Assembly (NCBI RefSeq): GCF_003334815.1
Contig: NZ_QOWO01000017.1
DNA from: Escherichia coli
GTDB lineage: Bacteria > Pseudomonadota > Gammaproteobacteria > Enterobacterales > Enterobacteriaceae
DNA length: 64,000 nucleotides
Reading direction: 5' to 3' (one strand)
The notes beneath the pieces were generated by a model. It did not search any database, had not been told where the DNA came from, and worked only from the letters and a program-made list of their open reading frames with translations. Positions 2,603-6,272 of this stretch are shown in pieces (the first letter of the stretch is position 1; each line of letters opens with the position of its first letter). A program made the translations under genes and the position numbers.

Positions 2603-3028
2603 AAATTTCATCCTCTGAAAAGTGAATACTGAGTAGCGTTTAAGCGACCTTAGCTTTGCTGCAACATCAGCCCACAGGCACCAGACCAGGGGATTCATCC
2701 TGAAGAGACAGCGCAAGTGTATTGTGTTCACCGCTCATCAAAGACATCATGATGAAATGATGATATTCCGCATAAGAATGAGGCATTTTTTAAACGCAGT
2801 GCGCTGAAGTGTGGTTGGATAAAAAAGTCAATCCATTCAGGAAATACGGGCGTATTCTTTTCTTTCGACAATGAGGCCGTTGGCAAAATAAAATGATTTA
2901 CATAATCGTTTCTGATGAATATCTTCTGCTCACATAAAAATCACACAATAACTTTGAGATCGCAGATTGTTTTACTTTTACAGCATTCGTCCCCCCATTG
3001 TTGGGCAAATATAGATTGGGCCAGAGCA

Positions 3029-3117
3029 CGAAAGTTAATACCACGTTCGCACAGCTCCTCCAACAGCACGACAAGATGCCACATACTGCGCCCCAGTCGG
3101 TTCAGTTTACAGACTAG
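3029..3117 (-). pseudogene. pinH: Fragment of serine site-specific DNA invertase (Pin/Hin/Gin family)
   Basis: Minus-strand translation [30 protein letters not shown] resembles the conserved core of Pin/Hin invertases; only about 30 codons, no start codon. Confidence 0.5.
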
Positions 3118-3244
3118 CAGTGCGTTCCCTGCCGATGATGTCCTGACCAGTTTTTTCAGTCCGGACCTCCTGCCACGGTTTTACGTTGAAGTGGTAACCC
3201 TGAGCACGCAGTTCTTCAGTCAGGCGTGGTGCACCGTAACGCTG
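3118..3244 (-). mobile_element. IS3-family transposase (OrfB-like) fragment abutting the invertase fragment
   Basis: Minus-strand translation [43 protein letters not shown] resembles the N-terminal region of IS3-family OrfB; different frame from the pin fragment, flanked by stops. Confidence 0.35.
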
Positions 3245-3513
3245 TTATTGCTGGGTAAGATCAAAAAACTTTCAGGCAGCTAAGGAAAGTTGAACCAGAC
3301 ATTAGATGAAATATTTCAACCAATTACAGCACCAATTCAGTCACTGCCAGCCCACCAAATAAATCAAGGGGTTACATGAAAACGTAGCCCCTTTTTCTTT
3401 GGTAGTGACACTAAAATGGATGTAGTGTGAAGAATAATCCCGTTTACTCAATCAATAATACATATTGTTTCAATCTACGTTATTATCTCTTTGTAAAAAT
3501 TGCCATTTATTAA

Positions 3514-4305
3514 TCATTGAAAACTGCTTTTAGAACTTGATACAACGGGACTAGTCACAACAGGACTATTCTCAACGGGATCATCCTCAGAGGAACTATC
3601 ATCAAAGTCATCATCCATAAATAAAATATCATCGAATGGTGCCACGCCCGTGATGAGTTTTATTTTATTATTACGATCAGTCAATACTCCACTTAAACCG
3701 TTTTCGCTCACAGGTTTTAATGATTTTTCATTACTCTTGTTGTAAGCAGGCGCATTAAAAATACACGGAGTATCAACATCAAACAATGACGTTCCCCAGT
3801 TCACATATTGAATATCATAGTTACTGAAGTTCTGTCCAGAAAAGAAGCACCCCTTAAAATCCAATCCACGTAAATTATATAAACCACCCTCTTCTTTTTG
3901 GAGAGTAATGTTAATTTTGGCTATCTCCCGGACATCATCGCCATTTTTGTATTTGAATACCGTTTCAAGATGTTCTCCAGACAGCTTGACTTCAGGAAAT
4001 AATTTGAAATCAAAGCCTATATTATTATGTGTCAACGTAGATGAACAAAAAATGGAAAAAGCTTGCAGTGCTGAATTATAGCTATCGATTTTATCTTGAG
4101 GCTGAGCTCTTGGTAAAAACTTATAGCAACACTCATAAAAATTAAACAGAAGCTCTGAAGACCTTGTATTTTTATCAAATAATACCCCCTTGAACTCATT
4201 CACAAACGCATCTTTTTTTTCTTGAATATCTATGGGGTGTTCCTTTGACTCTGACAAAGATGAAATCTCATCTATTTTGTTTTCATATGAATTACGTGAT
4301 TCCAT
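3514..4305 (-). CDS. ypjB: Hypothetical protein, low GC, pentapeptide-repeat-like segment and acidic Ser/Pro-rich tail; same frame as upstream ORF 4405..4887 across one TAG
   Basis: ORF track 263 aa; segment NLRGL/DFKGC/FFSGQ/NFSNY/DIQYV/NWGTS/LFDVD has 5-residue periodicity; symbol from position and length only. Confidence 0.5.
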   Translation of the reverse strand: MESRNSYENKIDEISSLSESKEHPIDIQEKKDAFVNEFKGVLFDKNTRSSELLFNFYECCYKFLPRAQPQDKIDSYNSALQAFSIFCSSTLTHNNIGFDFKLFPEVKLSGEHLETVFKYKNGDDVREIAKINITLQKEEGGLYNLRGLDFKGCFFSGQNFSNYDIQYVNWGTSLFDVDTPCIFNAPAYNKSNEKSLKPVSENGLSGVLTDRNNKIKLITGVAPFDDILFMDDDFDDSSSEDDPVENSPVVTSPVVSSSKSSFQ

Positions 4306-4404
4306 ACAGACATTTGGCGGCGTTTCTAAAATAACACTACGCGTACTACTTGGCTTAAGTAAACCAACATGAAAATCACTTTTTCTTATATTATCGAAAA
4401 GGTT

Positions 4405-4887
4405 CTATTCATTTCTTTTAGCGCATTCAAAAAACTGATCGGCATTATTTTTATTCGATAATTTTTTAGTTTCAGAAAACACATTTTCATTGTTTTCCAG
4501 CTTTAGTTTAATGAGAAGATTTTCCCAGACCTGCTTGCTTAAACATATTACGTCAGGCTCACCAGAACTAACTAACTCGTGATTATTATTAAAGTGTACG
4601 TTGAATACCTTTAAGTTATTTTCACCAACTTCATATTTAATACGTTTTAATTGTTCTCCAGCTCCCATAATGACAAAGGCGTTGCCTTCTTGATATATAC
4701 ATTCAGACATCATTTTTTGTAAAGTTTCAAGAGCACCGCGATACGTCTCTGATGCAGCTTCCTTACAAATTAATTTTAAAATACTATGAGCTAGTAGCTC
4801 CATGTGTTTAGAAGATTTATTTTCATTATAACTTCCACTACCCAAAACTGCGCTAGCGTTAAATCCGTTGCTTTTACTAACTAACAT
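4405..4887 (-). CDS. Hypothetical protein, low GC (ypjC-like by position); terminates at TAG 4405-4407 and is in frame with ORF 3514..4305
   Basis: ORF track 160 aa; hand-checked 34 sense codons between its TAG and the ATG at 4303-4305. Confidence 0.45.
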   Translation of the reverse strand: MLVSKSNGFNASAVLGSGSYNENKSSKHMELLAHSILKLICKEAASETYRGALETLQKMMSECIYQEGNAFVIMGAGEQLKRIKYEVGENNLKVFNVHFNNNHELVSSGEPDVICLSKQVWENLLIKLKLENNENVFSETKKLSNKNNADQFFECAKRNE

Positions 4888-5637
4888 TGTCTATTCCTCA
4901 ATTAATGTCTACATGGCTATTTTTAATGTTATTACTGTTTGTCACTATAAAAAAACGCTCATTTGAGACAATTACTGACATTAACTGCTTCACTTGCTAC
5001 GCATGGAACTTTTAATTAAATTAGCACAGGAATGTTAAATTTAATAAACAAAAGGTTATTTCGCTGTATGATAAAAAAAACCGTTATAATTTATTAGTGA
5101 AAATCGTTTTTCAAGTGTTAGAAATTTATATCTCAATAGCGTTGGTTAATGAGCATAGCCACGCTCCTGTAACGCTCACAAAACTCATCTGCCTGCGGCG
5201 GGTGTTCTGGTCAGTAGTAGATGTTTAAGGCGTGGCAGAGACATTTCATCCTTACTCTACGGCATTGTTCTACATACATTGGTTGTGGTACTCACTTATC
5301 ATCAGTGAGCGAACAGAGAATAGTTCAGTGATTTGAGTAATTAACCTGATTAAATGAAGGGGTATAATAAATGATAATACTCTGGCTTTATCGTTAATTA
5401 CTTAATTCCACATGTAAGCAATTTGCCCGCTTGGCATAGCAGGCATTTTTTCCAGGTACTTTTGAATGAGTACTGATGGATAAATACATTGCAGTGGCGT
5501 GCCACGTACCAAAACACCAGCCCTCATTCGAAACCACCCACCGCACTTCTTCCTTGAAATGGCGTTAGTCATGAAATATAGACCGCCATCGAGTACCCCT
5601 TGTACCCTTAACTCTTCCTGATACGTAAATAATGATT

Positions 5638-5713
5638 TGGTGGCCCTTGCTGGACTTGAACCAGCGACCAAGCGATTATGAGTCGCCTGCTCTAACCACT
5701 GAGCTAAAGGGCC
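5638..5713 (-). tRNA. ileY: tRNA-Ile (anticodon CAU, lysidine-type, ileX/ileY family)
   Basis: Reverse complement GGCCCTTTAGCTCAGTGGTTAGAGCAGGCGACTCATAATCGCTTGGTCGCTGGTTCAAGTCCAGCAAGGGCCACCA; cloverleaf with CAT anticodon and encoded CCA. Confidence 0.85.
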
Positions 5714-6272
5714 TTGAGTGTGCAATAACAATACTTATAAACCACGCAATAAACATGATGATCATATGATGTAAATAACAGATTTTTATGCGTTCCCATT
5801 CACCTTGGGTCGTGATTACACGCGACATAAAACCCGACACCGCCTCCATTCGCAAAGTCGATACTCGCAGTCAACAAGCAAATGTTAATAATTAGCACTA
5901 TCTATAGTTATCATCGATTCAATGATACTTTGTAATGATTTTGTATCTAATAATATAACTTTATTACATTAGCTGAAGAGTTTTCGCATCATTATGATAT
6001 CTGTTACTTTTCACTCCATAAAAATAAACTTCGTATAGCAATATATTCTTTCATAGATCTTATTCTGCTAATCATTAGTTTCGTATGAGCGATTTTTGAC
6101 AGTTGCCTCTCCAGACCACATCGATAATTAATAAAACAGATTTAAGCATTATCCTTTTCCATATAAATATTGGATAAAAGTAGGACATCTGTTTGCAATT
6201 ACTTTCACAACAATTAAACATTTTTATGTTTCCGTATACATCATATTACTCTACCATTAGAGGAACTTTATT

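Follow-up and report, generated by a model that had tools for sequence, protein, structure and literature searches.

Origin of the AT-rich ypjA-ygaQ block containing the transfer RNA gene ileY in Escherichia coli

When decayed, AT-rich DNA lies against the 3′ end of a transfer RNA (tRNA) gene, does it record an integration event at that gene, or may the tRNA gene itself belong to the foreign DNA? The question is raised by the surroundings of ileY, which encodes tRNA-Ile2, in a stretch of 64,000 nucleotides (nt) of Escherichia coli (assembly GCF_003334815.1, contig NZ_QOWO01000017.1), hereafter called the window. The locus is the known K-12 ypjA-pinH-ypjCB-ileY-ygaQ region and has already been annotated. 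Chromosomes derived from K-12 are 100% identical to window positions 78-9000, and the RefSeq gene order is ypjA, a 39-codon open reading frame (ORF), a 'recombinase family protein' fragment (pinH), the ypjCB pseudogene, tRNA-Ile, ygaQ and glaH-lhgO-gabDTP. The initial annotation, made from the sequence alone, considered positions 2732-6272 to be a degraded island at the tRNA 3′ end that had lost its integrase. This interpretation is not supported, as the tests of boundary, repeat and integrase all fail. We believe that the segment is probably an old, decaying, AT-rich accessory block that contains ileY, rather than an island that integrated at ileY and then lost its integrase.

The variable unit between ssrA and glaH

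The extent of the DNA that varies between genomes carries this conclusion. The variable unit is approximately 10.6 kb long (positions 9944-20592 of the K-12 locus L001), runs from just past the ssrA terminator to approximately 200 base pairs (bp) upstream of glaH, and includes ileY and ygaQ themselves. In ST131 (phylogroup B2), ssrA is followed by 685 bp and then by glaH, and ileY, ygaQ, ypjCB and ypjA are all lacking; E. whittamii and Escherichia sp. E1V33 have the same empty ssrA-glaH arrangement, again without ileY. Within the ST131 spacer, the first 152 bp, which include the ssrA terminator hairpin, are homologous to the K-12 DNA that lies between the right attachment site (attR) of the CP4-57 element and the stop codon of ypjA, and the last 200 bp correspond to window positions 8662-8861, with the glaH start codon at 8861. 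The middle 333 bp are unique and have no match in the block. Homology of the window with the empty-type Escherichia genomes resumes at approximately 8662, and homology with other Enterobacteriaceae resumes at approximately 8713. The comparison across genomes that the initial annotation had proposed thus confirms variable presence, but the unit that varies contains the tRNA. Because the insertion or deletion spans both the tRNA and ygaQ, the block is not a segment hanging off the tRNA 3′ end.

The filled state is exemplified by ST648 and NRZ14408, which carry no island at ssrA. In these genomes, ssrA and its terminator are followed 8 nt on by the ypjA stop codon and then by the complete series of ypjA, the small ORF, pinH′, ypjCB, ileY, ygaQ and glaH. 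The position of the ypjA stop codon 8 nt past the T-run of the hairpin in block-type genomes suggests that the hairpin probably terminates both convergent transcripts. A compensatory pair of changes distinguishes the hairpin stem of empty-type genomes (GCCCGC/GCGGGC) from that of block-type genomes (GCCCAC/GTGGGC). Two other Escherichia genomes carry, directly upstream of glaH, a fimbrial-adhesin-like ORF in one case and an ankyrin-repeat protein in the other, and this differing cargo indicates that the ssrA-glaH interval is hypervariable across the genus.

Among 5,426 complete E. coli genomes from RefSeq, the ypjCB region was found in 3120 and was single-copy and chromosomal in all of them, and ileY with both flanks contiguous was found in 2912. 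Nearly all other genomes yielded only a match of 76-79 nt, which is ileX, located between nfeF and mug; ileY is missing at the locus in roughly 45% of these complete genomes. The empty ssrA-glaH junction occurs in 1092 genomes and the K-12-type allele of the region upstream of glaH in about 4,220. Compared with the ypjCB and ileY counts, the latter number indicates that approximately one quarter of the block-type genomes have lost ypjCB and ileY secondarily. The sampled losses were mediated by insertion sequences (ISs): an IS1 adjoins glaH in BL21, an IS3 lies against a truncated ygaQ in VE-T10, and an IS3 lies approximately 350 bp from ileY in fS54a. Strains B and W are reported to have lost this tRNA by separate IS-mediated deletions (PMC3032704). 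The two genes ileY and ileX differ at positions 6 and 67 only, and in K-12 ileY can be deleted and ileX cannot (PMC11480407).

The composition of the block is foreign. As the initial annotation had stated, positions 2732-6272 are poor in G+C (GC 0.364), compared with 0.524 ± 0.027 (minimum 0.450) in segments of the same size elsewhere in the window. Codon usage deviates as well: GC at third codon positions (GC3) is 0.29 in ypjCB and ygaQ vs. 0.67-0.70 in glaH, lhgO and gabD, and ATA codons occur at 17-27 per 1000 in the block genes vs. 0-3 in the core genes. Uniform presence combined with a core-like composition, which the initial annotation had named as the outcome that would speak against an island, was not observed, and the block is both accessory and compositionally foreign. 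Genomic SELEX (systematic evolution of ligands by exponential enrichment) has located H-NS and RpoD sites in both spacers that flank ileY, ypjC-ileY and ileY-ygaQ (PMC3946193). The H-NS sites are consistent with xenogeneic silencing of the block, although the silencing itself is a role that we infer. A promoter-like site of ileY, TAGATA-16-TATCAT, is located at 5949-5922 on the minus strand, and the same hexamers have been given along with H-NS binding (PMC3946193).

The block is also old within E. coli. Its identity to the window in ST648 and NRZ14408 is 89-97% (ypjA 93-95%, ypjCB 89%, and ygaQ 96-97%), and the identity of the core neighbours glaH, lhgO and gabD is 95-97%. The pinH′ and IS3′ fragments are present and cut alike in both genomes. 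In addition, the pinH′ truncation is annotated alike in K-12, ST648, NRZ14408 and 23CRST047, and the fragment in PRO_A-1420 is slightly shorter (147 nt). Because diverged lineages share the same truncations, the mobile-element debris must be older than the split of these lineages, which are now approximately 5-11% diverged in this region. The IS3 fragment at 3172-3258 has 88.6% identity to the interior of IS3 transposase coding sequences in other genomes.

The decay of ypjCB and ygaQ is more recent and uneven. Intact forms of ypjCB and of ygaQ occur in several other lineages, and the ypjCB amber codon is a TAG in place of the CAG (Gln) of the intact alleles. The TAG at codon 614 of ygaQ is common to K-12, ETEC1749 and fS54a, and the TAGs at codons 111 and 346, together with the ypjCB amber, were found only in K-12-like alleles among those examined. 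To judge from these alleles, pseudogenization is stepwise and lineage-specific. We also considered whether four amber codons among four stops were special, and we rejected this idea: all four are G:C-to-A:T transitions from TGG or CAG that accrued stepwise, and the chance of obtaining three TGG-to-TAG rather than TGG-to-TGA changes is approximately 1/8.

In one alternative explanation, the genus inherited the block (or ileY-ygaQ at the least) from its ancestor, and the empty state in B2, E. whittamii and E1V33 reflects secondary loss or replacement. Secondary losses by ISs are indeed frequent, the divergence of the block within E. coli resembles that of its neighbouring core genes, and E. albertii and E. 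coli have ileY-ygaQ at the same site upstream of glaH; however, the ygaQ of E. albertii has diverged far more than the DNA that flanks it. An ancestral block would also have to be reconciled with its composition (GC 0.36-0.40 and GC3 0.29, compared with 0.52 and 0.67-0.70 in the core) and with the finding that YpjCB and YgaQ are essentially without relatives outside Escherichia. Furthermore, Salmonella, Citrobacter, Pseudocitrobacter and other genera have no tRNA or transfer-messenger RNA gene within 10 kb upstream of glaH, where homology begins only at approximately 8713. The spacer of the empty state is itself conserved across three species with 84-91% identity, which fits the empty state being old. 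We consider ancestry of this type rather unlikely.

ileY as an attachment site

At first glance, the position of the block on the 3′ side of ileY appears to favour integration at the tRNA. The bacterial attachment site (attB) of phage 186 is in the 3′ end of ileY (PMC3448106), and the phage record annotates a truncated tRNA-Ile of 46 nt at its phage attachment site (attP) as shared with this attB. Window positions 5638-5683 are identical to the 186 attP (positions 20985-21030) at 45 of 46 nt, and the predicted crossover region falls within this match. In the window, this attB is unoccupied: there is one copy of the half, the native A67 is retained, and no phage genes lie between ypjCB and ileY. 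By contrast, in PRO_A-1420 the space between ypjCB and ileY holds a complete 186/P2-like prophage with int, cI, cII, fil, replication, head, tail and B/ogr genes, and the displaced native half is located beside the ypjCB-side flank (L095 9558-9603); a prophage-ileY junction of this type occurs in 38 genomes. An 11.6-kb element in ileY of OkiPb01685 encodes a tyrosine integrase, Icd-like genes, a primase, a major capsid protein, a decoration protein, a connector and a small terminase. The rebuilt tRNA has an element-derived 3′ half with five substitutions, and the native half is displaced to L002 8403-8448. On the basis of its gene content, we take this element to be akin to the capsid-encoding satellites that resemble phage-inducible chromosomal islands; neither such an element nor any trace of one is present in the window.

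In ETEC1749, the end of a CP4-like island carrying the same variant tRNA half as OkiPb01685 abuts ileY. In the same genome (L085 20001-20076, L096 5579-7138), the island integrase and a displaced tRNA half adjoin nfeF, which is the ileX locus, and numerous IS elements lie between the island parts, together with core genes that have been relocated (gsp, sslE). This order points to a rearrangement involving either the two tRNA-Ile2 loci themselves or islands integrated there.

Two features of these insertions bear on the origin of the block. In both the prophage and the satellite insertions, the ypjCB side behaves as the host flank. In addition, every element-supplied half that was examined, as well as the 186 attP, has G67, whereas the tRNA of the window is of the native T6/A67 form. 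True attachment (att) events at ileY are marked by a displaced 46-nt half, which the window does not have.

The searches for an integrase and for att repeats were negative. Window positions 1-9000 were compared by tblastn with one large serine recombinase and with five tyrosine integrases, the latter from elements that are neighbouring or related; the best expect value was 0.14, which is noise, and the only recombinase trace in the block is the fragment of a Pin/Hin-type serine invertase. The probes for repeats were a 25-mer, a 46-mer (≤3 mismatches) and sliding 14-mers (≤2 mismatches), and a general repeat finder was run as well. The 3′ part of the tRNA, as 25 nt or 46 nt, occurs in a single copy in the window, and no second 46-nt half was found across the whole ssrA-ileY interval of the K-12-type, ST648 and NRZ14408 genomes; apart from the tRNA-like end of ssrA, the searches returned nothing but 14-mers that match by chance. 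The general search of positions 1-9000 returned repeats internal to the autotransporter gene, where passenger-domain repeats lie inside the coding sequence, and short chance matches, and no flanking repeats. These results agree with the initial annotation, which had found no integrase and no direct repeat of the tRNA 3′ end in the window. The search upstream of the window that it had proposed did not supply them in K-12-type genomes: there is no tRNA repeat, and the nearest integrase is intA of CP4-57, which adjoins ssrA and is part of an element that has an att pair of its own. Repeats of the ssrA 3′ end were likewise absent from the block, with the single such repeat being the CP4-57 attR outside it, and no degenerate copy was detected at the glaH-proximal edge (~8526-8713).

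The boundary on the tRNA side is also displaced from the att core. The sequence immediately 3′ of the tRNA is conserved for approximately 320 bp (5316-5637) in E. albertii, where ypjCB and ypjA are both lacking, and the junction between the tRNA-linked DNA and ypjCB is therefore located approximately 320 bp away from the att core. Beyond this flank, E. albertii NBRC 107761 carries a paralogue of ribosomal protein L31 type B and several low-GC ORFs, and these ORFs have no detectable similarity to ypjCB or ypjA.

Could ypjA-pinH′-IS3′-ypjCB nevertheless be the remnant of an island that integrated in the 3′ half of ileY and then lost its integrase and its far repeat? ileY is a proven attB, and an AT-rich block with mobile-element debris does face its 3′ end, but the elements that target ileY at present use block DNA as their host flank, and decay and AT richness next to a tRNA are, taken alone, no evidence that integration was targeted to the tRNA. 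The island end that abuts ileY in ETEC1749 brings an element-type tRNA half, whereas the window has kept T6/A67. It could be argued that the 3′ flank is the common end of an island family with variable cargo, which would fit the different cargo of E. albertii. However, the ssrA-ileY intervals of three diverged lineages contain no displaced half and no integrase remnant, the 8 nt between the ssrA terminator and the ypjA stop codon in ST648 leave no space for an integrase-attR end, and the genomes without the block are without ileY and ygaQ too. Because the insertion or deletion spans the tRNA, the flank is common to E. albertii, no half has been displaced and the native A67 is retained, a site-specific origin at ileY is not supported, and we regard it as improbable.

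It is very improbable that the block is an older island layer at ssrA that was moved outward by later insertions such as CP4-57: although ssrA is a much-used site (integrases lie right after it in K-12, BL21, VE-T10 and fS54a) and the block is on its 3′ side, islands at ssrA push the native downstream sequence to their far end, no further ssrA 3′-end repeats were found, and a native flank of 152 bp precedes ypjA (after the CP4-57 attR in K-12, directly after ssrA in ST648), which places the block distal to the native terminator and outside any ssrA att pair.

Several observations weigh against our preferred reading of an accessory block with a resident tRNA. In E. albertii, ileY-ygaQ are at the same position, and ygaQ is intact there with 68% nucleotide and 60% amino-acid identity, compared with 93-96% in its core neighbours glaH, lhgO and gabD; neither simple vertical descent nor a single gain accounts for this divergence. 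The 333-bp middle of the empty spacer has no homology to the block, to E. albertii or to other Escherichia in sensitive blastn and tblastx searches, and a gain is therefore not separable from a replacement or a loss. Clinical lineages are over-sampled among the complete RefSeq genomes, so that the percentages above are not population frequencies, and phylogroups were taken from named exemplar strains only. Finally, the lack of an att scar after a long period of decay is weak negative evidence.

The history that we favour is as follows. The block probably has an ancient horizontal origin and would have entered, or been exchanged, by a route other than site-specific integration at ileY or at ssrA, such as recombination in the flanking core DNA. 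Most non-B2 E. coli carry it in the space that separates the native ssrA terminator from the promoter of glaH (csiD). In this reading, ileY is a resident of the block, a dispensable second gene for tRNA-Ile2 and not a core gene next to which an island inserted. The invertase and IS3 scars are older than the divergence of the E. coli lineages. The ypjCB amber, the three ygaQ ambers, the IS5 in ypjA of this genome and the deletions mediated by IS1, IS3 and IS5 elsewhere represent later decay. Two RNA genes have 3′ ends that face each other, with the block in between, and both are live integration sites: ssrA takes CP4-57-type islands, and the half of ileY from the anticodon loop to the 3′ end takes 186/P2-like prophages and the capsid-encoding satellite. 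The ssrA-glaH interval is a double integration hotspot that has been eroded repeatedly by IS-mediated deletions.

Features, cargo and the ileY 3′ flank

The coordinates of the features are listed in Table 1. All of the features named in the initial annotation are present: ileY on the minus strand at 5638, the amber-interrupted gene (ypjCB), the invertase and IS3 fragments, the adhesin gene (ypjA) and the amylase-like pseudogene (ygaQ). The AT-rich non-coding stretch that it had given as 560 bp is the divergent spacer of Table 1. The start of the adhesin gene requires a correction, as GTG at 2731 is not the start codon.

Table 1. Features at the left end of the window, from the IS5 end in ypjA to the edge of the variable block.
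Feature	Positions	Strand	Remarks
IS5-family element end inside ypjA	1-71		Positions 1-80 match IS5/ISKpn26 transposase elements at 100%
ypjA, EhaD-type adhesin-like autotransporter, N-terminal 843 codons, IS5-truncated	72-2602	-	ATG at 2602-2600
39-codon ORF, WP_001120794.1, 5′ of ypjA	2667-2786	-	Annotated in every lineage examined
pinH′, inner piece of a Pin/Hin-type serine invertase	3010-3177	-	RefSeq: 'missing N- and C-terminus'
IS3-family OrfB (transposase) fragment	~3130-3260	-	Frame translation and nucleotide match
ypjCB pseudogene, single 457-codon frame	3514-4887	-	One in-frame TAG, 4405-4407
AT-rich spacer with presumed ypjCB promoter region	4888-5315		E. coli-specific; not found in E. 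albertii
ileY 3′ flank, native, common to E. albertii	5316-5637	-	Holds the 173-nt hairpin-rich core, 5378-5550
ileY, tRNA-Ile2, anticodon CAU, native T6/A67 form	5638-5713	-	Rfam tRNA 73.8 bits; RefSeq tRNA-Ile
Divergent promoter spacer ileY/ygaQ, AT-rich	5714-6272		559 bp, GC 0.313
ygaQ pseudogene, alpha-amylase-family-like	6273-8525	+	Three TGG-to-TAG: 6603-6605, 7308-7310, 8112-8114
Right edge of the variable block	8526-8713		Homology to other genomes resumes here

K-12-type genomes match the window only from position 72/78 onward. The IS5 insertion in ypjA (window 1-77) is absent from all of the top-matching genomes, and K-12-type references have an intact ypjA. The possibility that 23CRST047 shares the insertion was rejected, as its IS5 is located in ygaQ.

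YpjCB belongs to an orphan family in which all of the named homologues are from Escherichia or Shigella and in which the alleles have 77-95% amino-acid identity to one another. With regard to function, it matches only the Pfam domains DUF5507 and DUF5508, the NCBIfam model 'YpjCB' and a PHROG without function, and PADLOC gave no match; its AlphaFold model has a mean pLDDT (predicted local distance difference test) of 44. The relatives of YgaQ are found in E. coli and E. albertii (60%), with one 34%-identical metagenomic protein in an unrelated context, and the protein database contains no intermediate homologues between the E. coli and E. albertii forms.

The flank on the 3′ side of ileY contains a core of 173 nt (5378-5550, or 90-260 nt 3′ of ileY on its strand) that is nearly invariant in six diverged E. 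coli lineages. In E. albertii, this core has 84% identity, compared with 66-78% for the neighbouring sequence and 68% for ygaQ. The minus-strand RNA has a long hairpin at 5453-5540 and short hairpins at 5424-5445 and 5396-5423, and the predicted fold has a free energy of -51.7 kcal/mol (z = -3.2). In the alignment of the core, 12 base pairs vary on one side yet remain paired, and 99.2% of the cells are paired; no double compensatory change occurs, and the structure is hence without covariation support. The core has no match in Rfam and no copy in phages or true plasmids. A small RNA on the plus strand was set aside, as its promoter-like -10 element (5363-5368) is not conserved in ST648 or E. 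albertii. A conserved minus-strand ORF of 42-56 codons is unlikely to be coding, as E. albertii differs in it by 12 substitutions, of which 9 are non-synonymous, and has lost the upstream ATG. The core may represent an elaborate terminator or insulator of ileY or an RNA derived from its trailer. We tentatively propose that ileY and the 173-nt core are the only parts of the block under strong constraint. The core could then be an undescribed structured RNA that is co-transcribed with ileY or processed from its transcript, whether as a trailer-derived small RNA, an elaborate terminator or an insulator, and that is inherited with an accessory tRNA-Ile2 travelling among ATA-rich foreign genes.

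Elsewhere in the window, the serV-argV tRNA cluster (37667-38114) contains two tRNA-Arg(ACG) genes and one tRNA-Ser(GCU) gene. The K-12 reference has four tRNA-Arg genes at this site, and the difference looks like a contraction of tandem copies.

Comparison with known systems

As a K-12 locus, the region is textbook material, and phage 186 has its classical attachment site in ileY; the findings have little import beyond careful annotation. Relative to the ypjA-pinH-ypjCB-ileY-ygaQ region of K-12, the window has the same pseudogenes, amber codons and invertase fragment, and it differs by the IS5 end in ypjA (1-71).

Phages carry tRNA-Ile2(CAU) genes as cargo, for example ileZ in Shiga toxin (Stx) phages, and 2327 phage records contain tRNA(CAU)-like sequences that match ileY. 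ileY likewise lies among ATA-rich foreign genes, and we conjecture that it aids the decoding of these neighbours. Unlike the phage-borne genes, however, it is chromosomal and lies outside any recognisable phage.

Two integrating elements also serve for comparison. CP4-57, the neighbour of the block in K-12, is integrated at ssrA and is likewise degraded and AT-rich, with toxin-antitoxin and defence genes as cargo, and it illustrates how an island truly brought in by an integrase appears once decayed. It keeps intA beside ssrA and an imperfect repeat of the ssrA 3′ end at attR, whereas the ypjA-ygaQ block has neither and lies outside the CP4-57 att pair. For phage 186, a P2-like Eganvirus, the window carries the attB half that differs from attP at a single position; this site is empty here and retains the native A67, and in PRO_A-1420 it is occupied at exactly this point.

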